A stretch of DNA of 59,888 nt, counting the filler. It is 7 parts of 7 records of this genome, joined end to end, with 100 filler letters (N's around TTAATTAATTAA, not from the genome) between each part and the next. Parts side by side here need not be neighbours in the genome. Positions count along the whole stretch, not along the records: positions 40,830 to 53,515 come from SRR31156797_35150; 6 more parts are not named here. The stretch is one strand, 5' to 3'. Within the stretch, counting starts at the first letter, position 1, and every line of letters starts with the position of its first letter. Positions 13,280 through 53,615 of this stretch are shown here, one piece after another. The position numbers and the translations under genes were made by a program. The notes beneath the pieces were generated by a model. That model was not told the origin of the DNA. It worked only from the letters and a program-made list of their open reading frames with translations, and did not search any database.

Positions 13280-13759
13280 TTATTCTTTCTTTTTTGGTAA
13301 AGCGTGATAAGTTTTAGTCACAATTTTCCATCCTGTCTCAAATTTTAGTAAGGACAAATAATCGATAAATTTAAGTTCATCACCTTCGTAAAAATCAATT
13401 TTAGCGACAGCGGCTTTACCAGTCACATCAATAAATTTAAATTTTATGGTGGTGAATTCATTCTGGAAAGAATACTTTAGATTTTTACTTTTTTTTCCAG
13501 ATTCAGCATACTGTATCCAATTGTAAATTGGAGTTTTGTGCATGATATCACCAGAGCGACCTACACTAAGCAAAGAAAACCCCTTGTGGAATCCTTTGTT
13601 TACAGCATCAACATCAGTGTTGTTGCATAAGCCATCAACATAGGCATTTTGAATTACGTTTTTAATCAATTCCTTTTCTTTTTCAACATCATTTTCTTGT
13701 GCTATTAGTAATGTGAAAGATGAGAAAAGAAGGATTGCGAATACGAGTGTTTTTTTCAT
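13280..13759 (-). CDS. Secreted NTF2-like (putative lumazine-binding family) protein
   Basis: Signal peptide; IDVTGKAAVAKI and DYLSLLKF..GWKIV.K. Confidence 0.8.
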   Translation of the reverse strand: MKKTLVFAILLFSSFTLLIAQENDVEKEKELIKNVIQNAYVDGLCNNTDVDAVNKGFHKGFSLLSVGRSGDIMHKTPIYNWIQYAESGKKSKNLKYSFQNEFTTIKFKFIDVTGKAAVAKIDFYEGDELKFIDYLSLLKFETGWKIVTKTYHALPKKKE

Positions 13760-13834
13760 TTTGGATTATTTTTTGATTTATTAAAGCCCCTTTAGGGGTT
13801 TGGGAGTAGTAAGTTAGGAAATTATTTATTAGCC

Positions 13835-16225: not shown

Positions 16226-16241
16226 ATTTTCTTCAGGTTAA

Positions 16242-18632
16242 TTATTCATATCTTAAACTCTCCACCGGATTTCTTTTGGCAGCTTTCCATGATTGTAGTG
16301 AGATGGTTAATGAGGCTATGGCTATGGTGATAATTCCAGCTAAGGCAAAAATCCACCAATTAAGTTGGGTTTTATATGCAAAATTTTCCAGCCATTTGTT
16401 CATCACATACCAGGCAATAGGGCAAGCAATAACAAAGGAGAGTATGATCCATTTCAATAAATCTTTGTTGAACATGTTGATGATTTGCCAGGTTTTGGCT
16501 CCATTTACTTTTCGTACTCCTATTTCTTTGGTTCGTTGATGAATAACGAAACTTGCAATTCCCAATATTCCTAATAAACTTACCAGTAAGGCTAGCAATG
16601 AAAATACTTGGGTGGTGTTTTTCAAATGAATCTCATCCTGATATTTACTTTGCAAAATATCATTAAAAAACTGATAGGAGAAATCTCTGTTATCTCTATG
16701 CTTCTGATATGTTTCTTTTATATAGTTAATGGTTTCTAATTGCTGATAGTCTGAAATTTTAATATTCATTGTCATGATATTTTCAGGAGAATTCATGAGT
16801 ATCAAAGGTTCAATTCGATGATGAAGAGGTTTAAAATGAAAATCTTTAACTACACCAACAATAATTTCATTTCCAATTCTTTGTCCGATAGGATCATTAA
16901 AACCAAATAACTTTTCAGCAGCTTCGTTAATTACTATTGGAAAAGAAAGTTTTTCTTGTTTTTGCGTATTTTTTTCTTTTTTGTGTTCTTTCCAATATGC
17001 TTCGTAATCCATTTTTAGAAATTTTCCTTTTGTTATTTCCAATTGATAATTTTTCGCAAAATTTTCATCGGTATGAATTACCGAAACAGTGATACTGTCT
17101 CGCTTACCATTTTTGTCTATTGCGTAATTTGTACGCCAAGAATACTCAATTGGAGCATAGGTACTGGCTGATACACTTGTAATATTTGGATTTTGGAGCA
17201 ATTCATTTTTAAAAGCTTCACTATCATACCACAATCCGGTAGGAACAACAAGCATGTTATTGTGACTTAATCCTAAATCTTTTGAGTTGATAAAGTAAAA
17301 TTGCTTGATTAAAATTCCGGAGGATATGAATGAAAATATGGCAATGGAAAACTGGATCACAATCAAGAGCTTTAACAAACCAGATTTGTTGCCAGTTATA
17401 TTTTGTTTGTTGAGAATTAAAGTAGGTCTTAAACTGGATAGATATAATGATGGATATAATCCGCCAACCAATGCTGTGAAAAAGGTCAGGACAAGTAAGT
17501 TCAAGAGTAATTTAGAGGAAAGGTGAAAGTGAAGATTTTGTCCTGTTAATTGATTGAATTGAGGCAGGAAAATCCAACTTAAAACAATAGCTAGAATAGC
17601 TGCAATAAAGGTTTGAACTAAGGAATTACTCATGAACTGGATCAACAAATGAATTCGCTTGGCTCCATTTACTTTCTGAATTCCAATTTCCTGTGCTTGC
17701 TCACTGTATCGAGCAGTTGAAAGAATTGAGAAGTTTAAAATTACCATGATCAAAATTAGCAAGGCTAATCCCGAAAAAATCAAGACATATTTATAACTGC
17801 TAATATGATTATCGAGAATGTTTGGTGTATAATCCGAATGCAGGTGGATATCCGCAAGGGGTTGAAACAGGAGTTTATCCGTTTTGTTCGAATATCTATT
17901 AATATGGTTGCTTACCTTACTAAGAAATGTATCATCGATTAATGCATTTTTTCCAAGCTTGATATAGGTTCTAATCCAATAGGAATCGCCCCAAAGGTTT
18001 AGAGAATGATTTTTACTAAGAAGTTGTTTTGAAACCAGAAAATCAAAACTGATATGACTATTTGATGGGACTTTAAGAACAGCTCCAACGGTATAAATGA
18101 GTTCGTCGTATTTGTTGCTGATAATTTTCTTTCCCAATGCGGATTCCGACCCAAATAATTTGTGTGCAATTTGCTCAGACAATACTATGTTGTATGGATT
18201 TTCGAATGCACTTTCTTTGTTTCCTTCGATAAAAGTGAAGCCATTAAATATGTCAAAGAAATCCTTATTTGTATAACATTTTCGAGCTTCTATTTTTCTG
18301 TTTTTTGTATCTACAAAAAGAGGAGAATCTTCTGAAGATGACATGAGAAATGTTGCTGCTTCAATTTGTGGATAATCCTTTTTTAAGCTTTCCGCTATGG
18401 GTTGATAAGATCTACTTGATTTGACAATATCTTCTCCAGATTTTGACAAGGTAAGAACACGATAAACTTGATTGTAATCTGAATGAAATTTATCGAAATT
18501 TAGTTGATTGTACACCCAAAGATAGATCAATAAAGAAGCCATAATTCCTATGGTAAATCCGGCAAAGCTTACCAGAGTTAGAATAGGCTTTTTTAACATC
18601 GATCGAAAAATAATTTTAAAGGTTTGCTTCAT
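16242..18632 (-). CDS. ABC transporter permease, duplicated MacB-PCD/FtsX architecture
   Basis: 796 aa; QPLADIHLHS, RTKEIGVRKVNGA; C-terminus NPVESLRYE. Confidence 0.9.
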   Translation of the reverse strand: MKQTFKIIFRSMLKKPILTLVSFAGFTIGIMASLLIYLWVYNQLNFDKFHSDYNQVYRVLTLSKSGEDIVKSSRSYQPIAESLKKDYPQIEAATFLMSSSEDSPLFVDTKNRKIEARKCYTNKDFFDIFNGFTFIEGNKESAFENPYNIVLSEQIAHKLFGSESALGKKIISNKYDELIYTVGAVLKVPSNSHISFDFLVSKQLLSKNHSLNLWGDSYWIRTYIKLGKNALIDDTFLSKVSNHINRYSNKTDKLLFQPLADIHLHSDYTPNILDNHISSYKYVLIFSGLALLILIMVILNFSILSTARYSEQAQEIGIQKVNGAKRIHLLIQFMSNSLVQTFIAAILAIVLSWIFLPQFNQLTGQNLHFHLSSKLLLNLLVLTFFTALVGGLYPSLYLSSLRPTLILNKQNITGNKSGLLKLLIVIQFSIAIFSFISSGILIKQFYFINSKDLGLSHNNMLVVPTGLWYDSEAFKNELLQNPNITSVSASTYAPIEYSWRTNYAIDKNGKRDSITVSVIHTDENFAKNYQLEITKGKFLKMDYEAYWKEHKKEKNTQKQEKLSFPIVINEAAEKLFGFNDPIGQRIGNEIIVGVVKDFHFKPLHHRIEPLILMNSPENIMTMNIKISDYQQLETINYIKETYQKHRDNRDFSYQFFNDILQSKYQDEIHLKNTTQVFSLLALLVSLLGILGIASFVIHQRTKEIGVRKVNGAKTWQIINMFNKDLLKWIILSFVIACPIAWYVMNKWLENFAYKTQLNWWIFALAGIITIAIASLTISLQSWKAAKRNPVESLRYE

Positions 18633-20416: not shown

Positions 20417-20516
20417 NNNNNNNNNNNNNNNNNNNNNNNNNNNNNNNNNNNNNNNNNNNNTTAATTAATTAANNNNNNNNNNNNNNNNNNNNNNNNNNNN
20501 NNNNNNNNNNNNNNNN
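20417..20516. other. Artificial contig spacer
   Basis: N-run with TTAATTAATTAA. Confidence 0.99.
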
Positions 20517-26777: not shown

Positions 26778-26877
26778 NNNNNNNNNNNNNNNNNNNNNNN
26801 NNNNNNNNNNNNNNNNNNNNNTTAATTAATTAANNNNNNNNNNNNNNNNNNNNNNNNNNNNNNNNNNNNNNNNNNNN
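26778..26877. other. Artificial contig spacer
   Basis: N-run with TTAATTAATTAA. Confidence 0.99.
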
Positions 26878-32654: not shown

Positions 32655-32754
32655 NNNNNNNNNNNNNNNNNNNNNNNNNNNNNNNNNNNNNNNNNNNNTT
32701 AATTAATTAANNNNNNNNNNNNNNNNNNNNNNNNNNNNNNNNNNNNNNNNNNNN
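32655..32754. other. Artificial contig spacer
   Basis: N-run with TTAATTAATTAA. Confidence 0.99.
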
Positions 32755-40729: not shown

Positions 40730-40829
40730 NNNNNNNNNNNNNNNNNNNNNNNNNNNNNNNNNNNNNNNNNNNNTTAATTAATTAANNNNNNNNNNNNNNN
40801 NNNNNNNNNNNNNNNNNNNNNNNNNNNNN
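40730..40829. other. Artificial contig spacer
   Basis: N-run with TTAATTAATTAA. Confidence 0.99.
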
Positions 40830-40904
40830 AAGAGATACAAACACCGGGCTTTCTCGATCCCATATGGTAGAAGTGGTATCAGAACGGTGAACAGTGAGGA
40901 ATAG
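40830..40904 (+). CDS. C-terminal fragment of upstream gene (probably head-tail adaptor)
   Basis: Open frame KRYKHRAFSIPYGRSGIRTVNSEE* ending 2 nt before the next ATG; function from position only. Confidence 0.4.
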   Translation, partial: KRYKHRAFSIPYGRSGIRTVNSEE

Positions 40905-40906
40905 GA

Positions 40907-41260
40907 ATGACCATTCACACCATTGGTCTGATCCATGAGTGCACCATAATTTCAAAGACCCAGGCCGGGACAAACGAATACGGTTCACCTGTATATACAG
41001 AAAACAGCACATCATCTACATGTCGTTTTCTGGTTTCCGGTGATCCTGGCAAGATCGATGAACTTGAAAGCGGGAAGCACAGTGTTTCAGAAGTTTCTGT
41101 GATACTGCCTTCTGATGTTGTTGTGGAAGCAGGTGACACCATAAGCAGCACGGTTCCTGGTTATTTCCATTCTTATGTGGTGTTGTCTGCCATACCGATA
41201 ACCCGGCTATTCAACTCTACTGTTCATCATTACGAATGCAAGCTCAAGGCGGTGGAATAA
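40907..41260 (+). CDS. Head-closure / head-tail joining protein (SPP1 gp16-like)
   Basis: 117 aa beta-rich; T.I....G.NEYG.P, V..GD.I, HHYEC.L; position in neck module. Confidence 0.65.
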   Translation: MTIHTIGLIHECTIISKTQAGTNEYGSPVYTENSTSSTCRFLVSGDPGKIDELESGKHSVSEVSVILPSDVVVEAGDTISSTVPGYFHSYVVLSAIPITRLFNSTVHHYECKLKAVE

Positions 41261-41532
41261 TGGAGATCGATCCTGACACTTATGATAAAATAATCGAGAC
41301 CCACAACGATGTCAAGCACGTTCGTGCAGGCATTGACAAGATGAGCTGTCAGCTCGATGACCACGAGAAGAGAATTCGCGTACTTGAGAAGTGCTCCATC
41401 GAGGACCATGAAGAAAGGATCCGTATGCTGGAAGAGCGACAGAACCGCTGGCTGGGAAGGAATGCTTTTGTCGGACTAATGATCGTTGTGATCCTGCAGC
41501 TGGCAGGGATGATTGTCCAGATAATCTGGTGA
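41260..41532 (+). CDS. Small coiled-coil protein with C-terminal TM helix (XhlA/holin-like)
   Basis: DDHEKRIRVLE / EDHEERIRMLE duplication then hydrophobic tail; TAATG overlap start. Confidence 0.6.
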   Translation: MEIDPDTYDKIIETHNDVKHVRAGIDKMSCQLDDHEKRIRVLEKCSIEDHEERIRMLEERQNRWLGRNAFVGLMIVVILQLAGMIVQIIW

Positions 41533-41536
41533 TGTT

Positions 41537-41968
41537 ATGTTCCAGTTCAAGGTTAAAGGAATGGAAAAGCTGCAGAAGAACCTGCAGGAGCTGGGCAAGG
41601 ACATTACCGACGTCTTGGAAGAAGGTATGCTTGCAGGTGGAGATGTCGTTGTAAGAGCTGCCCAGGAGAATTCCAGAAAAGGTGGTGATGATTTCCCACA
41701 CAGGATTACAGGTAACCTGTTCCGCAACCTTGCAGAGGTCAACCCTGTATCTGTTGAAAGGTCGAACGAACGTTGTGAGGTAATGGTCGGCTCCACTATG
41801 AATTATGCAATGCGTCTTGAGAAGGGGTTCAATGATACCGATTCTCTCGGGCGGAGATACCATCAGCAACCACGACCGTTCCTCAGGCCTGCTCTTGATG
41901 AGAACACCGATGAGATTGAAAAGGCGATCAACCTCAAGCTTCAGCAACTTATCAGGAAGTACAAATGA
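41537..41968 (+). CDS. HK97 gp10-like neck protein
   Basis: VKGMEKL.KNL, TGNL, YA..LE.G, QPRPFLRPALDE. Confidence 0.85.
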   Translation: MFQFKVKGMEKLQKNLQELGKDITDVLEEGMLAGGDVVVRAAQENSRKGGDDFPHRITGNLFRNLAEVNPVSVERSNERCEVMVGSTMNYAMRLEKGFNDTDSLGRRYHQQPRPFLRPALDENTDEIEKAINLKLQQLIRKYK

Positions 41969-42345
41969 CATCTGTTCACGGAGCTCTTCGAAATCTGCTA
42001 TTGCAGAATACTGCAGTGGCTGATCTTGTCAGCAACAGGATCTACCCACTGAGACTACCGCTTGATTGCCAAATGCCTGCGATATCCATCCACAAGGTAA
42101 GCAATCCAATTGATCACGTGAGCGGTTTTGCTACTCCAAGATATCAATTCTCCTGCTGGTCCGGGACATATGCCCAGGTGCAGCAATTGTCAGATGACGT
42201 CATCGAATGTCTAAACCGGTACAAAGGTGTGGCCGATGGAAATCCCATCAAGCAAATAGCGTACCTTGATTCACATGATGCCATAGAGGAAGGCTCTGGT
42301 ATTTTTCACATTCCAATAGATTTCAAGATAATACACATGAGGTAA
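41965..42345 (+). CDS. Tail terminator/completion protein (DUF3168-like)
   Basis: L..LL....V..LV..RIYP..LP....PAI, RYQFSCW..TY. Confidence 0.8.
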   Translation: MTSVHGALRNLLLQNTAVADLVSNRIYPLRLPLDCQMPAISIHKVSNPIDHVSGFATPRYQFSCWSGTYAQVQQLSDDVIECLNRYKGVADGNPIKQIAYLDSHDAIEEGSGIFHIPIDFKIIHMR

Positions 42346-42349
42346 TAAC

Positions 42350-43144
42350 ATGGCACAAACAACCGTACAGAATTCAAATGCCATCCGGTTTGGATCCGGA
42401 AAACTGGAGATTGGCACAACCATAGGATCGCTTGTCAATATCGGCGCCATTCGCAATGCAGTATTCAAGGAGGAATGGGAAGATGTGGAAGTCAAATCCG
42501 ATAATGCCGGTATAGTGAAGGTTGGCATCAAGGAACACGTCGCATACATCGAATGCGATATGATGGAAGTGAACCTGGAGAATCTGAACACCATAAGAGG
42601 TGACCTGGATGCATATGCAACGGTTGCAGGAACTCCTTTATCCGTGACCAACGAAGTGCACTCCCTTGAAGGCACTGACTTCACAAGGTTTGATTACAGA
42701 AATGGAGATAGGTCCGAAGTTTCCAGCATTGTTGTGACTGATGCATCTGATAATGCAGCTGTCCGAAACACCGACTACGTGATAGCAGTTGATAGTGAAG
42801 GCTACACCTGTATTGCAAGGATCTCTGATTCAACTGTCATCACAGACGGCGAAGGCATCAAAGTGGACTATTCCTATACTCCCAGCTCTGCTGCCACTCT
42901 TACAAGCGGTGGTAAGACCTCAATATCAGATCGTGTGGTTCGCATCACCAATACCAATGAGAACGATAAGAACTTCCGCATCACACTCTACAAGGCTACA
43001 GTCAACGAAGGCCAGAACATAGAGTTTCCTGCAGATGACGGAGATGATCCTGCAATGCCACACCTGAAGATGAAGGGTGTGTTGGATGTGAGCAGAACTG
43101 CAGGTGATCAGCTCTATGAAATATACGATGAGCAGGGGATCTGA
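42350..43144 (+). CDS. Major tail tube protein
   Basis: 264 aa, IRFGSGKL.IG start, ITLYKA near C-terminus, position before chaperones. Confidence 0.75.
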   Translation: MAQTTVQNSNAIRFGSGKLEIGTTIGSLVNIGAIRNAVFKEEWEDVEVKSDNAGIVKVGIKEHVAYIECDMMEVNLENLNTIRGDLDAYATVAGTPLSVTNEVHSLEGTDFTRFDYRNGDRSEVSSIVVTDASDNAAVRNTDYVIAVDSEGYTCIARISDSTVITDGEGIKVDYSYTPSSAATLTSGGKTSISDRVVRITNTNENDKNFRITLYKATVNEGQNIEFPADDGDDPAMPHLKMKGVLDVSRTAGDQLYEIYDEQGI

Positions 43145-43146
43145 TC

Positions 43147-43506
43147 ATGAGCTCTGATATCATGAAGGATTTCGACACCATTGCACCCGTAAAACGTGTT
43201 GCAAGGATCGGAGGAGAAGAAGTTGATGTTTCAGTGTTCTCAACACGTGCAACCCTGAAGCTCATTGATATGACCGACTCTCCGGAGAAGATACACGATC
43301 TTGAGAGCGGTAAGAACATTGAGAGTTTTGTTGAAGTGGTTGCAATTGCCTGCCAGCGCTCTAACCCGAAGATAACTGCAGACTGGCTCATGGACAATGT
43401 CGATATGTTCACTCTTGTTGAGTTCTCGAAGTTCGTCCTGGAACCTATCATCCAGAAACTGGAAGAGATCAAGCCCTCGGAGAATACAGAAAAAAACTGT
43501 CAGTGA
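43147..43506 (+). CDS. Tail assembly chaperone (gpG-like)
   Basis: 119 aa between tube and tape measure, ends EKN at a slippery site. Confidence 0.75.
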   Translation: MSSDIMKDFDTIAPVKRVARIGGEEVDVSVFSTRATLKLIDMTDSPEKIHDLESGKNIESFVEVVAIACQRSNPKITADWLMDNVDMFTLVEFSKFVLEPIIQKLEEIKPSENTEKNCQ

Positions 43507-43540
43507 CCATCGGGGACATCTTTGCCCTGATGGGAATCAT
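43491..43540 (+). promoter_or_regulatory. Putative -1 programmed ribosomal frameshift signal
   Basis: In-phase heptamer A AAA AAC (43491-43497) and hairpin CCATCGGGG/CCCTGATGG (43507-43533); -1 frame equals ORF 43503-43769. Confidence 0.7.
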
Positions 43541-43769
43541 GTACTCGTGGGCCACCCCGGACCATCTTCTGGACCATATGTCCACGGGCCAGGTCATGCT
43601 CTACTATGAAAAAGGAATCAGAGCCGTTGAGATGCAGGCGAAGATTTTCTGGGGCGTGCTTGGAGAGGCTTTGAGTGGACAGGAAAAGATGAATGAGGTA
43701 AAAATCGGTGACAGGCCTGACCTGAAACGATTCTACGATCTTTACGGTAGTAAGATAAAAAGAGGTTGA
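43503..43769 (+). CDS. Tail assembly chaperone extension (gpT-like), probably made as a G-T fusion
   Basis: In the -1 frame of the upstream chaperone; W.TPD.L..M...QV pattern; immediately precedes tape measure. Confidence 0.7.
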   Translation: MTIGDIFALMGIMYSWATPDHLLDHMSTGQVMLYYEKGIRAVEMQAKIFWGVLGEALSGQEKMNEVKIGDRPDLKRFYDLYGSKIKRG

Positions 43770-43770
43770 G

Positions 43771-45963
43771 ATGACATCAATCGGTGAACTCATTGTTTCG
43801 ATTATCGGAGATGTAAGTCACATCAAAAAGGCATTTAATGAAGTGAGTTCACAGGCCGGCCAGATGGGAAAGAAGTTCCAGGAAACTGGAAAGCAGATGA
43901 CCTCTGCCGGGAGAACTCTCTCCACATATGTTACTGCTCCTGTTCTGGGACTTGGTGCCGTGGCATTCCATACAGCTTCCTCTTTTGATGATTCCATGAG
44001 AAAGGTCAAAGCCATCTCCCAGGCCACCGGTGAAGAGTTCAAGCAGATGACTGATCTGGCCAGGGAACTTGGCCGAACAACACGTTTCTCTGCCAGTGAA
44101 GCTGCCGAAGGCATGCAGTATCTTGCAATGGCAGGTTTCTCCACCTCTGAGGTTATGGAATCAATCGACGATATGCTCAGCCTTGCAGCTGCCGGAGCCA
44201 TAGATCTTGGTACTGCTGCAGATATCGCATCAAACGTACTTACAGGTTTTAATCTGCAGGCAAGTGAAGCCGGTAGAGTGGCAGATGTCATGGCCAAAGC
44301 ATCTGCTTCATCTAACACCGATATTACTCAACTTGGACAGGCAATGTCCTATGTTGCACCCCTTGCAGCTGCCATGGGAATATCCATGGAGGAAACAGCT
44401 GCAATCATCGGAAAGATGTCAGATGCAGGTGTCCAGGGAAGCCGTGCTGGTACTGCTTTGCGAGGTGCTTTGACAAGGCTTGCAGATCCAACTACTGAAG
44501 CTGCCGGTGTGCTGAAAAAATATCAGCTAACTCTTGCAGACGTGGATCCCACCACACAGTCTTTTACAGATATCATTTCCAGACTTAGCAAAGTCGGTCT
44601 GTCCACTGCAGATGCAATGGCACTATTTGGTCAGGAGGCCGGACCTGGTATGGTTGCACTGTTATCTGTGGGTTCCACTGCCATTCATGAGCAAACAAAA
44701 TTACTCGAGAACTCCGCTGGTGCTGCAGCTAAAATGGCAGAGGAGATGGAAGGAGGGCCAGGGGGAGCTATACGTGAACTTAAGTCTGCACTTCAAGATG
44801 TGATGATAACTTTCGGAGATGTGGTTGCTGAAGGGCTTATGCCACTGGTCAGTGCCTTCATCGAGATCCTCAACGTTGTATCTGGTATTCCAAAACCAAT
44901 ACTCAAGGTAATTGTAGCAGTAGCTGCCATAGCTGCAGCCATTGGTCCGGTACTGATCGTAGCTGGTTCTGTAATCGGTGCCATCGGAACAATAACAACC
45001 TTCCTCAGCAGTGCAGGACTGGCTGGAGCTTTGACCAGTGTAGCTGCAATTATCACGGGTCCTGTGGGAATAGCGATTGCTGCTCTTGTAGTAGGTGCAA
45101 TTCTAATATGGAAGAGCTGGGACAAGGTATCTCCTGTTGTCATGAGAACACTGGAGAACATTCAAACAGCTGCTGAACCACTCATTTCTCTGCTGAATAA
45201 TTTTGTATCCAATGTCATGAACAAGATCAGTGGATGGTGGGTAGAAAACGGAGACACAATCACTTCCGTTGTAGCTGGTATTGTGTCCATCCTTGGAATA
45301 TTGGTTTCATACATTGCAGACTATGTTGTTGGTAGTATTATGATATGGTTACCTCTGGTCCTGAAGACATTTGAGTACGTGCTTGATCAGATACTCAATC
45401 ACATACTTTTCTTCTCACAGATCCTTACAGGTGACTGGGAAGGTGCCTTGCAGACATTGCAGACCATCTCCCAGAGCAGAATTCATTTCCTGTATTCAAT
45501 AATAGCGGATGCAATTGATCCAATTTTAAATATATTCTCATCTGCTGGCAACAGTTTCTATCGTTCAGGAAAAGGCCTGATACAGAACTTCATCAACGGA
45601 ATAAAGTCGATGGTGAGCCCTCTTACATCCACGGTCTCGGATGTATTTACAGGCATTTCCAGATATCTCCCTCACAGTCCTGCTGAGGTCGGTCCATTGT
45701 CTGAACTTCCAAACTGGGATGCATTCTTTGTATCCCCTCTCAAGAAGTCAGTTGGAAAGATGGATAACATGCTGGCTACTGGCCTCAACAATGCAGCTGG
45801 TACTTTTTCTACAAGCACGAATACCACCAATAATTCATATGCAGGTGACGAGTTCGTGATCCAGAATGTAAATCTCTCAGCTGATTATCCGTTCGAGAAG
45901 TTTGTCCGTGACCTGGAGAAATACAACCGGCAAAAGCGTGTGCAAAGAGGTCATGGCATATGA
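43771..45963 (+). CDS. Tail tape measure protein (TP901-like core)
   Basis: LGRTTRFSASEAAEGMQYLAMAG, G.QGS.AGT.LR, LFGQEA, RYLPHSPA..GPLS. Confidence 0.95.
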   Translation: MTSIGELIVSIIGDVSHIKKAFNEVSSQAGQMGKKFQETGKQMTSAGRTLSTYVTAPVLGLGAVAFHTASSFDDSMRKVKAISQATGEEFKQMTDLARELGRTTRFSASEAAEGMQYLAMAGFSTSEVMESIDDMLSLAAAGAIDLGTAADIASNVLTGFNLQASEAGRVADVMAKASASSNTDITQLGQAMSYVAPLAAAMGISMEETAAIIGKMSDAGVQGSRAGTALRGALTRLADPTTEAAGVLKKYQLTLADVDPTTQSFTDIISRLSKVGLSTADAMALFGQEAGPGMVALLSVGSTAIHEQTKLLENSAGAAAKMAEEMEGGPGGAIRELKSALQDVMITFGDVVAEGLMPLVSAFIEILNVVSGIPKPILKVIVAVAAIAAAIGPVLIVAGSVIGAIGTITTFLSSAGLAGALTSVAAIITGPVGIAIAALVVGAILIWKSWDKVSPVVMRTLENIQTAAEPLISLLNNFVSNVMNKISGWWVENGDTITSVVAGIVSILGILVSYIADYVVGSIMIWLPLVLKTFEYVLDQILNHILFFSQILTGDWEGALQTLQTISQSRIHFLYSIIADAIDPILNIFSSAGNSFYRSGKGLIQNFINGIKSMVSPLTSTVSDVFTGISRYLPHSPAEVGPLSELPNWDAFFVSPLKKSVGKMDNMLATGLNNAAGTFSTSTNTTNNSYAGDEFVIQNVNLSADYPFEKFVRDLEKYNRQKRVQRGHGI

Positions 45964-46292
45964 TCGTTACTTTTGACGGTTCACCGGTATCTGTGATCAA
46001 GTATATGGAAATCTCAGTGGATTCTCCTTTCAAGGAGACCACCCTGCTGTCCGGGAAAACATACATTCAGGCTTCTCCTGAGCAGAAGTTTGCCAGGACC
46101 TTTGAGTGCTACACTGAGGTCCTTTCCGAGATATCCACCCTGCTGAGTAAACTTGGTACTTCAGGTACACTGGTGATTGATTCTGATTCGTACACCAGCT
46201 GCTACATTGTTCCTCCGCTCAAGTATAAGGAACTGATCATGGGCAGTGGAAAGTATACCTACACAATCAGTTTTGCGAGGCATACGGCATAA
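45960..46292 (+). CDS. Putative distal tail (Dit-like) protein
   Basis: 110 aa, ATGA-coupled to tape measure; function from position. Confidence 0.5.
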   Translation: MIVTFDGSPVSVIKYMEISVDSPFKETTLLSGKTYIQASPEQKFARTFECYTEVLSEISTLLSKLGTSGTLVIDSDSYTSCYIVPPLKYKELIMGSGKYTYTISFARHTA

Positions 46293-47737
46293 TGGTAGAT
46301 TTGAACACATATCCTCTGGAATCCCTGAAGGTTTCAAAAACGATCAGGGATGCTTTCTGGCAACTGGAATCACATATCGTAGATGTATCTATCCCGGTCA
46401 ACTATTCAGATGTGCTCATTGAGCTGGAAGATTATTCTGGAAACAACAAAGCAGTGTTTTATGGAATTACTGCCCCCGATGAATCATATGATCTTAAACT
46501 GGTTGAAGAAGCGGTCGATATCTATGCCTATGACTTACGATGGTTCCTGTCTCGCCAGTTTGTACCTGATGCTCAACTGGTACTGGCAATCACAGACGAT
46601 ATCATCACTTACATCGAGGATCTGTTGGGTGGAAGCAACTGGGTTATTGTAACAGGCGTGGAACCTTACAAAATACGTTCTCCTGATCCTGCCATTACAA
46701 AAAAGGAATTCGTATTCAATCCAGATACTTCAAAACTGGATGCTATAGCAGAGATTGCAGAGTACTACAACTGTATTTTCGAGGTTAAATGGCGAAATGC
46801 AGGAACCGAACAATCGCCTAATTGGATTACCTGTGCTTATTTCATCAGGTCTGAAGAGATCGACGATGATACAGATGGTCTGGATTTGCCATCGCCTGCA
46901 GTGCTGGAGAAAACGGACAATGATATTCTTGAGCTCACGGTGGCCAACTCCTCCGATGACAAGTACAATAGGATCATAGCCAAAGGGAGTGATTCCTCCG
47001 GTAATTGGTATACAGGAATAGTGGAAAGTTCCAATGTAACAAATGGAACAGCAAAGCCCAGAGAGTACATGGAATATCCTTCTCCATACGTTGTCAGCCA
47101 GGGTACTGCAGATCAGCGTGCATCTGAGCTTTACGCCCTGTTCAATTTTCCTGTTAAGAGAATCTCTGCAACACTCACCAAAAGACATGACCTTGAACTG
47201 TATCAGCTTGTCAAGTTCGATGGCTGGACCGAATATGCGAATGCACTCTACACGGTGGGACAGACTGGGGTGAACTGGGTCAGGATAGTGGAAATATCCC
47301 ATGTAAAAACTGCCACATCCTCTGAAGTACGGATTGTGTGCGTTCCGGACAGGGACCTAAGTCACAGCCGGCTGAAAGGCTACTCGGTATCACCAAACAG
47401 CGTGGACATTACAGAATCTATAGTTATGGATGTACTGGCATCGCAAGCATTAGCGGAGATTGGTGTAGCTACTCTTCCAGAATCCGAGTCGTCGGCATCT
47501 GTTGCATTGAACAGGGGAGGTACGATCACTGCGAAGGTGCTTGGTTCTGATGAGAGCATTGTTCTTCCCATAAACAATGAGCGTGTTATTGTATCCGGAG
47601 GAGGAGGTGGTTTCAGTAACCCTGCTGAAGAGGACTTAGACATGAAAGAGTTCAAAGTGAAAAGTACAACAGAGGACCTGGTTTTTCAGGTACCTCAAGT
47701 TAAAAAGATAATATTCCAACGGGAGCCAACTGCATGA
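46292..47737 (+). CDS. Putative baseplate hub / tail-tip protein
   Basis: 481 aa; LDAI.EIAE, YNRIIAKG, A..RA.EL patterns typical of hub proteins; position. Confidence 0.55.
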   Translation: MVDLNTYPLESLKVSKTIRDAFWQLESHIVDVSIPVNYSDVLIELEDYSGNNKAVFYGITAPDESYDLKLVEEAVDIYAYDLRWFLSRQFVPDAQLVLAITDDIITYIEDLLGGSNWVIVTGVEPYKIRSPDPAITKKEFVFNPDTSKLDAIAEIAEYYNCIFEVKWRNAGTEQSPNWITCAYFIRSEEIDDDTDGLDLPSPAVLEKTDNDILELTVANSSDDKYNRIIAKGSDSSGNWYTGIVESSNVTNGTAKPREYMEYPSPYVVSQGTADQRASELYALFNFPVKRISATLTKRHDLELYQLVKFDGWTEYANALYTVGQTGVNWVRIVEISHVKTATSSEVRIVCVPDRDLSHSRLKGYSVSPNSVDITESIVMDVLASQALAEIGVATLPESESSASVALNRGGTITAKVLGSDESIVLPINNERVIVSGGGGGFSNPAEEDLDMKEFKVKSTTEDLVFQVPQVKKIIFQREPTA

Positions 47738-48390
47738 CAGTAGGCAAGATAACATCCTCCCAGCAAGACCTTGTCTATGTGAAAGTAAGACCTGAAAATG
47801 GAACTTTCCTGGAAACAAGGATAGGTGGATTAGAGGCGGTTTTAAGTATATCAGATTCTGCAGGCCAGGAATTCACAGCAGAGCATTACTTTGGCAGGAT
47901 CAAAATAGCTGTCAAGGATGCTGGAAACAAATCGCTGATAGCAAGGCTTTATGATTCTCACCTTAAGGAAAACAAACTGCATGAAACGATATTCAAGAAC
48001 GTGGGTCAGGACAAAGTGTTGCACTGGGCTTTTGATCCATTGCCTGCAGGCACGTATTACTGGGAAGTAGAGGCTTGGGCCGGAGTGAGTGGCTTTGAGC
48101 TTTACGTATTTTCAGGTTCCACACTCAGCACAGCATACATGGATGGTTCTTTGTTACCTGGAAAAGATTTCAAGAGCAAGGTGATGTATTGCGAGGATAT
48201 TGAAGTAGAGAGAGCTGTTGCAGTCGTAGGGGACAGTGTAGATTCAGATGTTGCAACTGTAAGTTCCGGGACATCATTTGGATCTGTCATGGTTGGTACA
48301 GTTGAGAAGAACATATCCAGGGAGCTTGATGATCTGGGAAACGGTGGTCAGATACTGACAGGGTCATGGTTCCTTGAGATGGATAATTAA
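47734..48390 (+). CDS. Hypothetical virion/tail protein
   Basis: ATGA-coupled 218-aa beta-rich ORF. Confidence 0.55.
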   Translation: MTVGKITSSQQDLVYVKVRPENGTFLETRIGGLEAVLSISDSAGQEFTAEHYFGRIKIAVKDAGNKSLIARLYDSHLKENKLHETIFKNVGQDKVLHWAFDPLPAGTYYWEVEAWAGVSGFELYVFSGSTLSTAYMDGSLLPGKDFKSKVMYCEDIEVERAVAVVGDSVDSDVATVSSGTSFGSVMVGTVEKNISRELDDLGNGGQILTGSWFLEMDN

Positions 48391-48408
48391 AAACAGGGGG
48401 AAACAGAT

Positions 48409-49323
48409 ATGGGATTTACAAGCGGTGGAAAAACATTACCGGATATCATAGATGAAATAGCAGCAGCCTTGATAGCAAGTTCTGCAAATTGGTCAGATGG
48501 TGACACTACATGGGACACTACAGAAACATCCAATGATACGGACACCAACAGGCGTTGCCTGAAATATACCGGGGATGCAGCTGACATCTGGCTTGCACTT
48601 GAGAGCATAAACGATGACAGTCACTATTACGGGGCCAGTGTAAGTGCTAAAGGCTTGAGAATCACGTTTTCCAGTTCATGGGATAGTGTAAACCACACCT
48701 ACGGAACAACTAATAGCCAGACATTTATTGGATTTCAGGGAGATGATTCATCCCCTCAGGCAGATTTGAATTCCATGATACTGACCTACTATTTATGGGT
48801 AGATTCATCCGGCTTTGCACTGATGGCAAAACCCGAGCCAATTTCTGTGGATGACAGGCAATCTTCGTTCATTACAGTAGTAGAACATATGGGTACAAAG
48901 GAATACAGCGATGGATTAACCAATTTCTATTGTTTTACACAGAGAAATGTAGGTGTTTCGTGGACAGATTCCAACGATCATGATTACTTTGAGTTCATGC
49001 CAATGATAAGGCCTTTCGCATACGAAACCCGTACCATTGGCAAGGGGATACAGTTCTGGTACCATGATTATAACAATCGCTACGCTCTCAAAAGTACCGG
49101 AAATGGGAAGGTGTATTTTGTAAAACCAGTCATCTGTAACTCAATTGACAATTTCACTCCGATATACCAGAGCGAGCTGTTCTTTAAGTTCTCAGAAGAT
49201 GCAGGACTTGTTGATGGGGATGTGATAGCAATCGATGGGGAAACCACGAAATATATCTGCAAGACCCTTGATTCACCGGACAGCACAGCCAGGTTGAACT
49301 TTGCTATAAAGTACGTGGCATAA
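48409..49323 (+). CDS. Hypothetical virion/tail protein
   Basis: 304-aa ORF in the tail operon, purine-rich SD. Confidence 0.55.
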   Translation: MGFTSGGKTLPDIIDEIAAALIASSANWSDGDTTWDTTETSNDTDTNRRCLKYTGDAADIWLALESINDDSHYYGASVSAKGLRITFSSSWDSVNHTYGTTNSQTFIGFQGDDSSPQADLNSMILTYYLWVDSSGFALMAKPEPISVDDRQSSFITVVEHMGTKEYSDGLTNFYCFTQRNVGVSWTDSNDHDYFEFMPMIRPFAYETRTIGKGIQFWYHDYNNRYALKSTGNGKVYFVKPVICNSIDNFTPIYQSELFFKFSEDAGLVDGDVIAIDGETTKYICKTLDSPDSTARLNFAIKYVA

Positions 49324-49340
49324 TAGTAGGAAGATGGTCG

Positions 49341-51194
49341 ATGGCATTTGATCCGGTAGTATTTGGAACGTATGTGGTAGGCACAGGGTTCACAGATGGC
49401 AGTTCAATATCAGAGGGAGGGTTCAGGTTATTCATAGTTCCTTCTGAGAATATAGGTGATGCACCTCTAGATGTGACAGTAACATACGTGGACCAGTTCG
49501 GAAACCCTGCAGAACAGACAACAGTAAGTACATCAGTTGAAGCTAACACCACTGCAGGCACGCATATGCAGGTATCCCTGAACACGGGAGATACAGGTAT
49601 AAGGGACGTTACAGCTGTAAACGTCGCTGGTGGGACCACTGGAGATACCTTCACACTGGAAAGCTGGCATGAAGGAATTGGCAAGACGGTAACATCGCTT
49701 GAAAGTGGGCAAAGGGAAAGTAACCAGCAAATACTGGATATTCGGGATGTACATCCAAACAGAATAAAGGAGCAGGGTGACCCATTCATAATAGATTGCA
49801 TTCATGAGAACGTGGTATATGATCCAATAACAAAGAGCTTCATATTACCAATTGAGGAAATAGAACCTAACTATTCTACCGAAATTGACATCAGTGATGG
49901 TCTGATGCCTGCAAATATAATCCTGGATGGCACTAACAAGTATTTCAGGGTGGACCTGCCTGCAGAAACGAGCTTTGTAAATGTTGACAGTGAATATACC
50001 AACCAGGAATTTGAATATGATACAAATGCATTCTACAAGATCACTTTTGATTATGATGTAAAATTGAATAGCAGCTATTTCATAGTGGAACTGCTGGATG
50101 ATCAAGATAACATCAAATGGAGCAAGAATGCTACGACTGCGTCCACAGGACAAATTGTCAATATGGTATCAACCAATTTCAGATTCAGGGTACGTTGTAA
50201 AGCAGATTATGATTCTCCTTTAATTTACTCTGATTATTGCCAAATAAGCAATATCAAGCTGGAACGATACAAGGATACAGGAATAGTCCAACAGAGCTGG
50301 CATAAATATTTTGACAGCATGGTATCGCTGGAAACTGTAAACGTTGATTGGACATCCGGTACAGCAGGAACTGCAGTAAAGGCACAGCTGAACATCTCGG
50401 ACGATAACTCAAGCTGGACCGGCTGGAATGGACCAGCTGGAACATCCGCTTCCTACTACACAGGTAACTGGCAGATAATAGACAAAGACGGAAAGATTGG
50501 AAAATACTGGAAAGCCAAGATATGGCTGGAGTCGGATGGAAGGTACACACCGACCTTCAACTACATGGAATACTACATGTACATTAGAATGAAAGCCATC
50601 GAAAAGGAATTCCTGGACACTGACCCTGCAACTGCGGGTGTTCCAGTGGCTTTTCATCCCATTTATAGCCCTCTTCAGGGTCAGAAGACTGGTTCTCAGG
50701 CATTACCGATTTCAGGTCGAGATTTTGTGAATCGGCTGATCGACATAATTGCAACGCTGGAACCTACGGATAACCAGCAACTACCCACATCAGGTCGTAT
50801 ACTAACAGAGCGAGAGATTATTCTGTTCAGATCCTGGGCAGAATCAGTGGTAGGCGTGGTTATGTCCGGATATGCAAAAGACCAGGAAGATGCTGTTATT
50901 CAGAATGCAGTTAAGGTGATATTGGAGAGCACATACACTTTCGGTAAAGATACAATGGGATCCGTTAATCCAGAGACAGGTTTCTTCCAGATATTTGTCA
51001 AAGATGCGAAATACGATAAGAGGCACCTAATAGTTGAAGTCTCTGGAAGAAGTGTTAATATATCCCTGGCAGAGTATGGGGATCCTGCAATACTGGACGC
51101 TACTTCTGGCCAGATCCCTAATCAGGATCTTCATTTCTGGAAATCCAGTATTTGCAGGTCAGTTGCTCATGTTGATTCACTCGTCACTTATTGA
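49341..51194 (+). CDS. Putative tail fibre / receptor-binding protein
   Basis: 617 aa, beta-rich, S.DN.SW.GW and Y.K.KI.L.S...TP motifs; last gene of the tail operon. Confidence 0.5.
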   Translation: MAFDPVVFGTYVVGTGFTDGSSISEGGFRLFIVPSENIGDAPLDVTVTYVDQFGNPAEQTTVSTSVEANTTAGTHMQVSLNTGDTGIRDVTAVNVAGGTTGDTFTLESWHEGIGKTVTSLESGQRESNQQILDIRDVHPNRIKEQGDPFIIDCIHENVVYDPITKSFILPIEEIEPNYSTEIDISDGLMPANIILDGTNKYFRVDLPAETSFVNVDSEYTNQEFEYDTNAFYKITFDYDVKLNSSYFIVELLDDQDNIKWSKNATTASTGQIVNMVSTNFRFRVRCKADYDSPLIYSDYCQISNIKLERYKDTGIVQQSWHKYFDSMVSLETVNVDWTSGTAGTAVKAQLNISDDNSSWTGWNGPAGTSASYYTGNWQIIDKDGKIGKYWKAKIWLESDGRYTPTFNYMEYYMYIRMKAIEKEFLDTDPATAGVPVAFHPIYSPLQGQKTGSQALPISGRDFVNRLIDIIATLEPTDNQQLPTSGRILTEREIILFRSWAESVVGVVMSGYAKDQEDAVIQNAVKVILESTYTFGKDTMGSVNPETGFFQIFVKDAKYDKRHLIVEVSGRSVNISLAEYGDPAILDATSGQIPNQDLHFWKSSICRSVAHVDSLVTY

Positions 51195-52376
51195 GGTGGC
51201 GTTGCTATCAGACAAAACCTCCTTTAATTTCCCTAAGTATCCCTGCAACTCTTGGACATCCTTTGGATCTTTTGCTCCAATTTCAAGAAGCAGTTGCATA
51301 CCCAGCTGTTGCATGTCATCGACATTAGTTGCTGCAGATGCATTAAGAGCCATTCCACAACTACTGCAGAAATCTGCGGCTGGTCCGTTCATGATTTTGC
51401 AACGGGGACATTTAATTGGGCTTAGTTGTGGTTTTGTATCTTCTTCTTTTGCTAAGCCATGCATTTTCAACAGCGCGTTGTCCACTTGTTTTCCAGACAT
51501 GTGGATATATACGGATGGCATGTTAGATCCATGAACCCAGCCCAAGTGTTCTTCCATCTGCGCCTGTGTCAGGTACTGTGCAAGTTCCGTGCTTCTGCTG
51601 TGCCTGAAAAGGTGATTATGCACTCTTTTTTTGATTCCTGCCTCTTTTGCGAGTTTTCGAACAAGATATCTAAAGGCTTGATATTGGAGCTGATTTCCAT
51701 TATTTGTGGTTCCGTGGCCTATCCACAAATATGCATCTGGGTTGCTCCTATGAGGATGGAGGTCTAACCATGCAGATAGATATGGAACACTTGAGATTAG
51801 CCGAACTCTTCTCATTCCAGTCTTCCCATTAACTGTGACAACTGCACCGTACTGATCATGTACCACATGTTTGATTTTCATGTTCCCCATTTCTGAGATC
51901 CTGCACCCTGAATCATATAGCACAGCAACGATTGCTCTGTCTCGTGGATTGCCAGCTTCATTTATCATCATTTTAATTTCTTCTTCTGTGAGCAGTTCCT
52001 CTGGGATTTTTGTTTGATTCTTTTTGATCCGAACTGAAATCCAGTCCACTGTCTCGGGTTTATCAAGCCACCTGTATAGTCTGCGTATCGCGGACTTGTA
52101 ATCGAGTTTTGACCAGTGACTAAGGTCGGAGCGCTCAATCTTTGCTATCACTTTTTTGATATCAGCTTCTGTGGCAGCATTTATATCCTTACCCAGCCAT
52201 TTCGCAAACATATTATAATGGCTTAAGTATTTGATCACGCGTGCCTTTGAAATTCCGTCCAGAAAGAGTTGACTTTCATATTCGAAGATTGTATCTTTGC
52301 TGCTCTGGCTGTATTCAGCTTCTTGGATACGGCGCTCTGCAGAATCCAAATATTTGTCAAAATCATATATTCCCAT
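51177..52376 (-). CDS. Tyrosine integrase with C-terminal zinc ribbon
   Basis: DSGCRISE (R), GKTG.R (K), HLFRHS, LGW, SVYIH (Y), CPRC...CSSC; AGGTG SD before ATG 52376. Confidence 0.93.
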   Translation of the reverse strand: MGIYDFDKYLDSAERRIQEAEYSQSSKDTIFEYESQLFLDGISKARVIKYLSHYNMFAKWLGKDINAATEADIKKVIAKIERSDLSHWSKLDYKSAIRRLYRWLDKPETVDWISVRIKKNQTKIPEELLTEEEIKMMINEAGNPRDRAIVAVLYDSGCRISEMGNMKIKHVVHDQYGAVVTVNGKTGMRRVRLISSVPYLSAWLDLHPHRSNPDAYLWIGHGTTNNGNQLQYQAFRYLVRKLAKEAGIKKRVHNHLFRHSRSTELAQYLTQAQMEEHLGWVHGSNMPSVYIHMSGKQVDNALLKMHGLAKEEDTKPQLSPIKCPRCKIMNGPAADFCSSCGMALNASAATNVDDMQQLGMQLLLEIGAKDPKDVQELQGYLGKLKEVLSDSNATSISDE

Positions 52377-52462
52377 TAATAACACCTACTATTTTTCCTA
52401 ATACTATCCTTTGCCAAGCTTGGTGAAAGTGTTGTAGGCATTATAACCGGTCCCGTATTCCG

Positions 52463-52882
52463 GTGGTTGGTATGGTGGCCCTTGCGGCACTTGTAGCTAT
52501 AATTCCTCCACCCACGAAAAACATGTCAGTAACGATTGACACTGCAGGAGAGCAGGGAGCAGGTATGAATCCTGGCAATACTGTTATTGTAGATTCTACA
52601 ACAGCAGCCTCTCCTTTTACGATAGATGTGGCAATATCTGTTGTAGATCCTGATGGTTACCCTGTCAGAAGTGCAAATGTTGTATTAAGAGGCCTTGGCG
52701 GTGTTGCCACAGGTGTCACAAATGATGCCGGACAGTGTACCCTCACAACAGTCACCCCTGGTGGCGCACAGGTCAACCTTGGTTCCAACCAGAATGAAGG
52801 GGCAATGGACCTGTCCATTTCAGCAAATGGATTCTACGACTTTGAAAAGACAGATGCTGTAATGGTAGTCAGGACTTCATAA
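52463..52882 (+). pseudogene. 5'-truncated archaeal class III signal-peptide (pilin-like) gene with carboxypeptidase-regulatory-like domain
   Basis: Begins mid-hydrophobic helix (VVGMVALAALVAII); upstream in-frame codons unrelated, TGA at 52424; paralogous to the next gene. Confidence 0.6.
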
Positions 52883-52913
52883 TCCTGACTTCTTTTCTAT
52901 TTTGCAGGTTTAC

Positions 52914-53345
52914 ATGTTATCAGATGATTCTGCATCAGTAGGCCTTCCTATAAGGATTGTAGTGCTTACGATCATTGGTATGATAGGCATTTATGCCATA
53001 CTCTCGGCTGTTATGAGCACGCCTTTTCTTCCCGGTTCAATGTTTGCAGCTTCTAATTCCAGCAGCTTCAATATATCCGGAAGCGTGGATGATTCTCCTG
53101 ATCTCGTAGTTAGTGTCTTTGACAATGACGGAAGGTCCGTAAGTGGTGCCAATGTCATAGTATGGGGTCCGCAAAGGGAAAAAGTAGTAGGTGGAGTAAC
53201 AGACAGCGCTGGAGAATTTCATTACAGGCTCGTGGGTATTTCCCTGCCACAGGGAAAAACGGAAGGTTACCTGTCAGTAAAAGTAATGGAAGAAGGCTAT
53301 CTGGATTATACCAATGATTTCCTTGTAAAAGTAAAAAGAGTGTGA
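52914..53345 (+). CDS. Archaeal class III signal-peptide (pilin-like) protein
   Basis: MLSDDSA/SVGLPIRIVVLTIIGMIG; V.D.DG..V.GANV....G.TD..G. Confidence 0.75.
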   Translation: MLSDDSASVGLPIRIVVLTIIGMIGIYAILSAVMSTPFLPGSMFAASNSSSFNISGSVDDSPDLVVSVFDNDGRSVSGANVIVWGPQREKVVGGVTDSAGEFHYRLVGISLPQGKTEGYLSVKVMEEGYLDYTNDFLVKVKRV

Positions 53346-53387
53346 GCATCTCTTTTTAGATGCTCATATGTTAGTTTTCTTTTTTAT
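53343..53387 (+). terminator. Hairpin plus T-rich terminator
   Basis: TGAGCATCT-cttttt-AGATGCTCA followed by T tracts. Confidence 0.6.
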
Positions 53388-53515
53388 TTAGATTTGTTCG
53401 GTTCTGTAGAAACCCTGCCTGTTGCAACTTTGAACTTAGCAATTTTTAATAATTGCATTATTTCAATAGTCTTCAGATTGGTCGCAAAGGAACGTGCCGC
53501 CTGCGGCGGGTGGTC

Positions 53516-53615
53516 NNNNNNNNNNNNNNNNNNNNNNNNNNNNNNNNNNNNNNNNNNNNTTAATTAATTAANNNNNNNNNNNNNNNNNNNNNNNNNNNNN
53601 NNNNNNNNNNNNNNN
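53516..53615. other. Artificial contig spacer
   Basis: N-run with TTAATTAATTAA. Confidence 0.99.

Follow-up and report, generated by a model that had tools for sequence, protein, structure and literature searches.

The 59,888-base window analysed here is a concatenation of seven contigs joined by six artificial linkers, and the locus of interest lies on one of them, a 12.7-kb contig (positions 40830-53515) that carries a run of viral tail genes, a tyrosine integrase gene on the opposite strand and, beyond the start of the integrase gene, two small genes of an archaeal host (Table 1). As the window is made of concatenated contigs, the locus stops at 53515 and the DNA after it is unrelated; the G+C content of the contigs spans 32%-64%, and neighbouring contigs therefore need not share one organism. 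Judged from its gene content and from related genomes, the contig very probably stems from a Methanolobus chromosome into which a temperate, head-tailed archaeal virus has integrated and holds the right attachment site (attR) end of this provirus, which splits a conserved surface-protein gene and leaves this gene decapitated in the lysogen.

Table 1. Features of the provirus locus and of the window that contains it.
Feature	Position	Strand	Basis or remark
Linkers	6756-6855, 20417-20516, 26778-26877, 32655-32754, 40730-40829, 53516-53615		artificial, N44-TTAATTAATTAA-N44
Provirus right arm	40830..52461		siphovirus-like head-tailed archaeal provirus; colinear with right end of G001 provirus
Head-tail adaptor	40907-41260	+	PHROGs phrog_793
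Tail completion/Neck1	41537-41968	+	PHROGs phrog_5
Tail terminator	41965-42345	+	PHROGs phrog_347
Major tail protein	42350-43144	+	PHROGs phrog_807
Tail tape measure protein, 730 amino acids (aa)	43771..45963	+	PHROGs phrog_1533, E 3.8e-127; G001 orthologue is Pfam PhageMin_Tail
Four distal-tail/fibre candidates (481, 218, 304, 617 aa)	46292..51194	+	no Pfam or PHROGs match
Tyrosine integrase, 399 aa	51177..52376	-	ATG 52376; Pfam Phage_integrase, SAM-like N domain, DZR; PHROGs integrase
Virus-side arm of attR	52377..52461		between integrase start and core
att core in attR, GGTGGTTGGTATGG	52462..52475	+	14-bp direct repeat at both ends of G001 provirus, common to the empty site (attB) of virus-free relatives
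Truncated gene, 3' part, codons 25-163	52463..52882	+	membrane-anchored immunoglobulin (Ig)-like protein (DUF7382 / CarboxypepD_reg-like), conserved in Methanosarcinaceae
Intact downstream paralogue	52914..53345	+	143 aa, begins MLSDDSASVGLPIRIVV, 28% identical to truncated gene
Dispersed repeat	53400..53515		contig end; eight contigs of run X1, the likely source run, map to 53425-53515

The distance from the most likely integrase start (ATG 52376) to the truncated gene is 87 nucleotides (nt). This agrees with an earlier reading of the window made from its letters only (the sequence-only reading), which had described a host-type open reading frame (ORF) that begins abruptly about 85 nt past the integrase start, behind unrelated codons and a TGA at 52424. 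The ORF at 52463-52882 has a GTG start and begins VVGMVALAALVAII; the codons in frame upstream of 52463 read ..KCCRHYNRSRIP and follow the TGA at 52424-52426. The truncated gene is without promoter, Shine-Dalgarno sequence, TTG start and the first 24 codons. In its native form the gene has a conserved TTTATAT box and GGTGAT as Shine-Dalgarno sequence; most Methanolobus copies start at TTG, and their leader is 13 residues long. A search of a protein collection resulted in 90 relatives at E<=0.001 among 196 candidates, most of them 159-172 aa long, from Methanolobus, Methanococcoides and other Methanosarcinaceae. About 24 extra N-terminal residues (..KLFNDDRAIELPINIVVML) are found immediately ahead of VVGMVAL in 11 of the 13 homologues that were aligned, and the two that start at MVAL, from M. 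halotolerans and M. profundi, both have an integrated element at that place. Judged by these alignments the truncation is far beyond chance, and the loss of the N-terminus proposed in the sequence-only reading is borne out. The downstream paralogue is complete, as that reading also held; it begins 31 nt past the truncated gene, the same gene pair is present in virus-free loci, and it has no obvious promoter of its own and is probably co-transcribed with the truncated gene. The absence of a tRNA gene from the junction was likewise confirmed, as ARAGORN found none in the whole window and Rfam gave no tRNA-like match at E<=1 in 52300-53515. The decapitated gene has already been annotated as a normal protein of 135-137 aa in two deposited annotations. 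The use of short annotated homologues (135-139 aa) as a census of lysogens was considered but dropped; for at least one of them, P0041, the gene seems intact and its short length a matter of where the start codon was called.

A scan of species-representative genomes gave 75 Methanosarcinaceae loci of the target gene. The uninterrupted allele that the sequence-only reading implied is present in relatives: the N-terminus is contiguous in 69 of the 75 loci, broken in five (L012, L023, L035, L058, and L062) and cut by a contig end in one (L073). Orthologues starting at VVGM or MVAL, which in virus-free genomes would have meant that the gene naturally begins there, were seen only in occupied genomes. 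The segment A[IM]ELPINIVVMLV.GMVALA is the same in all 68 loci that bear the motif, the DNA of virus-free relatives aligns with the window from 52462 rightward and not before, and the nearest relative (L005) is uninterrupted. A tblastn search with the window integrase found matches in four of the 75 loci. In two of them (L023 and L035) the integrase is 92% and 90% identical, respectively, and has the position and orientation seen in the window, immediately ahead of the same truncated gene; in a third (L012) an integrase of 34% identity is found directly upstream of the same truncated gene, and the fourth match (L073) lies elsewhere in the locus. The three occupied genomes are an uncultured Methanolobus genome with the locus on a 3.37-Mb contig (G001, locus L023), M. 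halotolerans SY-01 (G002, locus L035) and M. profundi Mob M (G003, locus L012).

Both ends of the provirus are found in G001, where the left (attL) and right attachment sites are located 56.7 kb apart and share the 14-bp direct repeat GGTGGTTGGWATGG. The missing piece is found at the far end, where about 85 nt of promoter sequence and the initial 24-29 codons border on viral DNA, into which the frame continues for four codons before it stops (..IVVMLVVGMGSPL, VVGMGSPL). The window contig is colinear with the right end of this provirus of about 56.7 kb (87.2% identity over 12,525 nt, through the junction and into both host genes), and the remainder of the window has no match to it except a short repeat. 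The expectation that the missing 5' codons and a second copy of the core would turn up at the other end of the provirus thus holds in G001, whereas the contigs of the window show attR only. The same attR is present in M. halotolerans, with the matching attL on another contig. Among five attL-like short proteins in public collections four end ..VVGMGSPL; one of these is G001's own, and the remaining three, found in other assemblies, show two or more kinds of host leader. A public 42-aa protein with this ending, P0093, has a leader of host type that resembles those of the closest homologues of the window gene, and may mark the attL of the window's own provirus. The junction, the empty sites and the split gene in G001 support the earlier claim that the provirus lies in the 5' coding region of a protein gene and not in a tRNA gene.

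It could be argued that the two small genes are viral morons, or that the junction is a chimeric assembly, so that there is no integration into a host gene at all; the contig is only 12.7 kb long, comes from a mixed set and ends 170 nt past the second gene. However, the gene pair is found in conserved chromosomal synteny in virus-free isolates and in complete genomes, the junction recurs in three genomes, in one of them on a 3.37-Mb contig, and a contig from a different metagenome, of sludge (X4, record 23), bridges the attR junction at about 91% identity. A further contig (X2, record 12) extends just 29 nt beyond the junction, short of the 31 nt required, and was not counted. This alternative is already contradicted and scarcely credible. 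Since the synonymous divergence (dS) between window and G001 is 0.54 for the integrase and 1.50 for the adjacent host gene, the insertions in these two genomes look independent. The host genes of the lysogens are closest to those of unoccupied species (dS 0.39 between the window and L005, and 0.75 between L023 and L004).

The integrase gene is intact and is not split by integration. Its product matches Phage_integrase (PF00589) with 74.7 bits (cut-off 27.1) over residues 132-297, and candidate R-K-H-R-H/W-Y catalytic motifs can be seen by eye in the translation. The match to archaeal XerA (NF040815) is 113 bits, below the equivalog cut-off of 220, and on these scores the protein is a mobile-element integrase, not a chromosomal dimer resolvase. 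A C-terminal extension of about 80 residues (51177-51420) contains a CxxC...CxxC zinc ribbon and an acidic tail; a zinc-ribbon extension is also present in the 34% identical integrase of M. profundi. The core site of a tyrosine recombinase consists of two inverted binding sites flanking an overlap of 6-8 bp. Core position 10 is an A in all three attL copies, and a T in two of the three attR copies and in the nearest empty sites, which places strand exchange to the left of position 10. In the inferred viral site (attP), composed of the left arm of attR and the core and right arm of attL, the sole inverted repeat of at least 4 bp with a spacer of 6-8 bp is ATTCC-GGTGGTT-GGAAT. Its ATTCC (52457-52461) directly abuts the core and the GGTGGTT spacer begins at core position 1 (52462-52468 in the window). 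It is therefore in the 7-bp overlap GGTGGTT, between inverted ATTCC/GGAAT integrase sites, that strand exchange probably takes place. The 30 nt that precede the core are the same in the window and G001, and G002 differs at three of them. The sequence-only reading had pointed to an inverted repeat, ACCGG-N9-CCGGT (52446-52464), and to a TTATAA (52441-52446) 26 nt ahead of ATG 52472, and both are present. The left half of the inverted repeat lies in the virus-side arm and the pattern occurs only once in the window against 0.02 expected, a rarity that on its own is weak because the pattern was picked after being seen. As a recombination site it was set aside, since the core-centred ATTCC-7-GGAAT fits the crossover data better.

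The virus integrase acts on the 14-bp core inside codons 24-29 of the host surface-protein gene, and, as the G001 provirus shows, integration sends the TTTATAT promoter, the Shine-Dalgarno sequence, the TTG start and the first 24 codons to the far end of the provirus, with the remaining 139 codons and the paralogue left beside the integrase. Because the core is duplicated, precise excision would restore the gene (attB ..ATGCTGGTGGTTGGWATGGT..); the single mismatch in the core is in a synonymous Gly codon. Since a substitute 5' end is absent from the virus, the lysogen is left with a decapitated gene, and no second copy of the gene body was found in G001-G003. The remnant loses the leader and 11 of about 25 hydrophobic residues and keeps 14. 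Loss of the leader and of these hydrophobic residues, and probably of operon transcription as well, would inactivate the protein and perhaps its paralogue.

Several observations weigh against this interpretation. The window carries attR only, as the left arm and attL are outside the contig, which starts inside the virus. No free virus or attP turned up when viral and metagenome contigs were scanned with an exact 20-nt virus-arm pattern, nor when viral contigs were scanned with a 19-nt attL-arm pattern and with the 617-aa fibre candidate, and integrase scans of viral and metagenome contigs gave only relatives of 48-57% identity and no free genome. No attB or attP form that would indicate excision was seen among the sequencing-run contigs that mapped to the locus. 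The exact 14-bp core is present in only 9 of the 68 intact sites, because third codon positions vary, and as DNA the site falls far short of the conservation of a tRNA gene. In all four occupied genomes the truncated ORF has remained open, and its ratio of non-synonymous to synonymous divergence (dN/dS) relative to the nearest unoccupied relatives is low (0.06 for window-L005 and 0.08 for L023-L004), which points either to a recent insertion or to continuing selection on the remnant; GTG 52463 and ATG 52472 are candidate new starts. Finally, the G001 provirus may be defective or laden with cargo: in the region L088, 790-12243, its large-terminase ORF holds the N-terminal domain only, and about 9 kb of genes of cellular type separate this ORF from the next structural genes.

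These observations bear on whether integration has any consequence for the host. It is conceivable that it is phenotypically neutral, with TTATAA serving as a virus-side promoter for a leaderless or short-leader mRNA that starts near ATG 52472, so that a shortened but working protein is made, the paralogue is expressed and the site is used only for its conservation. The TTATAA is kept at its place in both G001 and G002, the intact remnant and its low dN/dS would be expected if a working protein is produced, and in the core of the M. profundi element an in-frame ATG (Met23) remains. On the other hand, TTATAA may be the promoter of the integrase itself, which starts 65 nt away on the opposite strand, and as the three viruses are close relatives its conservation proves little. 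In addition, the remnant retains just 14 hydrophobic residues, the lost segment does not vary among the 68 intact loci, a sign that it is needed, and the insertion of an IS630-type element at codons 25-26 in one metagenome-assembled genome shows that the gene can be lost. A neutral outcome is regarded as unlikely, though not negligible, and decapitation of the surface-protein gene with probable loss of its function is the preferred interpretation.

A model of a full-length homologue of the target protein (predicted local distance difference test, pLDDT, 78.9) has a helix at residues 18-37 and a beta sandwich at residues 42-162. The homologue P0015 matches DUF7382 (PF24107) with 31.7 bits, above the cut-off of 27.4, and the truncated copy in the window falls just under it with 25 bits; sub-threshold Pfam matches of P0015 are to CarboxypepD_reg, MG4, and Big_1, and NCBIfam yielded no match for the target. 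Structure searches gave macroglobulin, gingipain, and intimin-type Ig-like domains at the top (Z 7.9-9.4), with a solved archaeal (AAP) pilin, 8q30, at Foldseek rank 25 (E 0.019), no better than generic Ig-like domains. Matches in the ESM Atlas were to unnamed or DUF7382 archaeal clusters only, and a profile search of the PDB gave nothing significant (best E 0.17-2). A family profile of P0015 residues 13-69 had weak, non-significant matches to the TolR transmembrane region (PDB, E 0.5-1), and there was no ExbD/TolR family among Pfam matches at E<=5. On this evidence the target is a small membrane-anchored Ig-like surface protein, for which a pilin is a possibility and not a finding. The gene pair is very conserved and uncharacterised, and deserves study in its own right.

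The sequence-only reading had called the target pilin-like, and this could not be established. Prepilin peptidases recognise a charged residue at position -2, Gly or Ala at -1 and hydrophobic residues from +1, and Glu at +2 is atypical for class III signals. In the 68 loci the residue before the helix (-1) is Ala in 67 and Gly in one, position -2 is Lys or Arg in 40, Ser in 18, Asp in 7 and another residue in 3, +1 is Ile or Met and +2 is always Glu; Ala or Gly ahead of a hydrophobic helix fits a class III signal peptide but is no proof of one. No pilin or class III signal family was matched by two full-length homologues and the paralogue (Pfam E<=5, NCBIfam E<=1), and the target family is not mentioned in the reviews of archaeal type IV systems that were searched. 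Nor is the gene pair located in a pilus locus. Its neighbours encode hisH-like, ferredoxin-like, coiled-coil and UDP-glucose dehydrogenase-like proteins (the ferredoxin-like and coiled-coil genes were run on Pfam, the UDP-glucose dehydrogenase-like gene was read from its N-terminus, and a hisH-type GATase is found at equivalent positions elsewhere). No pilus ATPase or platform gene is nearby: PF00437 matches of 70-137 bits are at least 375 kb away in two complete genomes, and the nearest match, about 8.5 kb away in one of them, is weak at 31.9 bits and falls in a 628-aa frame of unverified type.

It is nevertheless tempting to speculate that the target is a type IV pilin-like virus receptor and that lysogeny removes it, which would exclude superinfection, or that integration acts as an excision-reversible surface switch (active lysogeny). 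The gene is split in such a way that excision would restore it, the protein combines a short polar leader with A/G at -1 (68/68), K/R at -2 (40/68), a hydrophobic helix and a beta sandwich, and at least three different breakpoints made by different elements fall within about 60 nt of the segment. Against this stand the lack of a pilin family match (Pfam E<=5, NCBIfam E<=1), the Glu at +2, which is atypical, and the location of the gene pair outside any pilus locus. A receptor or switch of this kind is thus improbable, and a trial complex prediction between the 617-aa tail protein and the target ectodomain (score 0.00) is evidence neither way.

The segment is also broken by elements other than the tailed virus. 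In M. profundi (L092, G003, about 2760-17560) it is occupied by a 14.7-kb non-viral element flanked by ATATTGTTGTAATG, a 14-bp core whose end lies 2 nt short of the virus core within this gene; its attL frame terminates in ..IVVM*. The element encodes a 395-aa zinc-ribbon integrase, a serine resolvase, a MazE-like protein, an Exo_endo_phos protein and a DUF927 protein, the last of a family linked to primase-helicases. As its integrase is only 34% identical to that of the tailed virus, the element is, by this measure, unrelated to the virus. In Methanococcoides (L062, about 2230-2260) host sequence resumes at ..LIAIIPPP, and an unrelated public protein of 38 aa (P0095) ends ..LAALIAIS; together they appear to flank a third site near codons 34-37, some 10 codons beyond the others. 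No integrase was found within the 2.2 kb available at L062, where a GIY-YIG ORF lies upstream. The IS630-type insertion at codons 25-26 (L058, 1100-2300) has ORFs with helix-turn-helix (HTH) and DDE_3 domains and terminal inverted repeats; its contig was binned as a deltaproteobacterium and yet carries Methanosarcinaceae genes. Two orphan 5' ends were also seen. Methanosarcina sp. Z-7115 (L059) has an orphan promoter with the first 22 codons at 2928-3075 and an intact gene 7 kb downstream (second copy at 9926-10072); the fragment is 82.7% identical over 150 nt and breaks at GTTGTAAT, and KaiC, two KaiB genes and a PAS histidine kinase, but no integrase, lie between the copies. This orphan may be what is left of an element, now decayed, that formerly provided a substitute 5' end. 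The other, a second attL-like copy in G001 (L091, G001:C2:24001-44000), includes 5.9 kb of duplicated host flank at 92.7% identity, with no matching gene body or close integrase nearby, and could be a real segmental duplication or an assembly artefact of strain mixing.

It is conceivable that the N-terminal segment is a shared landing pad for unrelated elements, i.e., the tailed virus, the 14.7-kb plasmid-like element and the third element in Methanococcoides, with cores within about 60 nt, and that lysogeny reversibly switches the protein, and probably its paralogue, off. Should the protein serve as the adsorption site or belong to a surface filament, the locus would provide the first example in archaea of receptor loss coupled to integration, or of active lysogeny. 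Taken as a whole this scheme is speculative and rather unlikely. Occupied sites are present in two strains available in culture, M. halotolerans SY-01 and M. profundi Mob M, in which excision, expression of the remnant and a surface or adsorption phenotype are directly testable.

The viral nature of the element rests on hallmark genes, i.e., the tail module in the window and capsid, terminase, and primase-helicase genes in the G001 counterpart. A scan of 52 of the 67 ORFs listed for the G001 region, which omitted a flanking host gene, five overlapping small ORFs and nine ORFs with counterparts in the window, added a capsid protein of HK97 type, a minor capsid protein, a primase-helicase and a large terminase represented by its N-terminal domain. 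The left arm of the G001 provirus is rich in defence-like genes and carries helicase, PLD, radical SAM, and NACHT/STAND genes, a nucleotidyltransferase/HepT pair is located just upstream of the capsid genes, and the cellular-type genes include FIST, ZnuA, an iron-dependent repressor and two CobW genes. The 617-aa gene (49341-51194) is the most variable gene among the related proviruses; it is 91% identical in G001, and in the M. halotolerans provirus (L094, 13728-16406) two tandem copies of about 41% identity replace it, with flanking genes at 77-78% DNA identity. Such variation is the pattern expected of a host-range determinant. Among deposited virus genomes no close relative was found, the best integrase match being 39.5% identical, in Geoglobus pleomorphic virus.

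The integrase lineage appears to have changed its target. Of six paralogous integrases (42-60% identical) examined in G001-G003, four lie 75-160 nt from a tRNA gene (Ser-TGA, Thr-TGT, Thr-CGT, and Asp-GTC), and an integrase of 57% identity on a metagenome contig (L086) adjoins tRNA-Ser. As five of these seven relatives are linked to tRNA genes, targeting of a protein gene is, on this distribution, a derived state within an integrase lineage of tRNA type. The reason for adopting this site may be that the amino acid sequence of the N-terminal segment does not vary within the family. The locus thus represents a case in which a tRNA-type lineage has moved to a protein-coding target and disrupts it.

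The contig ends in a dispersed repeat, a 72% identical copy of which is found in the opposite orientation about 0.5 kb inside the left end of the G001 provirus. The repeat is the likely cause of the assembly break and may be a miniature inverted-repeat transposable element (MITE)-like element. The DNA beyond 53615 has a G+C content of 56-64% and is unrelated to the provirus locus; from 53616 onward ORF translations show by eye an RND-type efflux pump, an AraC-type regulator and AzlC-like genes.

Archaeal integrated elements mostly use tRNA genes. The present integrase resembles the archaeal tyrosine integrases that target tRNA genes in belonging to the same family, in having its core about 80 nt upstream of the integrase start and in an integrase gene that stays intact upon integration (the intact-gene, pNOB8-like type). 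It differs in that the target lies inside protein-coding sequence, that no displaced gene end is carried and that the target is not regenerated. With archaeal type IV pilins the target shares a short leader, a small residue before a most-conserved hydrophobic helix and a beta-sandwich domain, but it has neither a family match nor the context of a pilus locus. Closer in kind are integrated elements of Thaumarchaeota, of which 14 of 68 were located in protein genes, all at the 3'-distal end, and a worked example has a 13-bp att site with the frame reconstituted by a new stop codon (Krupovic et al., 2019; PMC6563490). Site-specific integration into an archaeal protein gene, short att sites and the comparison with empty sites are common to both, whereas here the 5' end is struck and 24 codons and the promoter are removed. 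Pipelines for finding archaeal proviruses set boundaries by integrase, tRNA and direct repeat (PMC11705971), and reliance on tRNA and direct repeat would cause such elements to be missed or wrongly bounded. In literature on methanogen proviruses, archaeal integration targets and archaeal active lysogeny no gene-disrupting lysogeny of archaeal viruses was found; supplementary tables of surveys were not covered, so that the M. halotolerans and M. profundi elements may have been listed before. In bacteria, gene-disrupting lysogeny is well studied. Prophages that can act as switches include those of Listeria phi10403S type in comK (PMC7397523) and phiSa3 in hlb of S. aureus (PMC6597384). They have in common with the present provirus that a temperate virus inside an ORF inactivates a host gene and that precise excision can restore it; they differ in that regulated excision and a phenotype have been demonstrated for them, whereas the Methanolobus case has an archaeal host and is known from sequence alone. 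Site-specific lysogeny that disrupts a gene is thus a known phenomenon, and what appears to be new here is its occurrence in an archaeal host.

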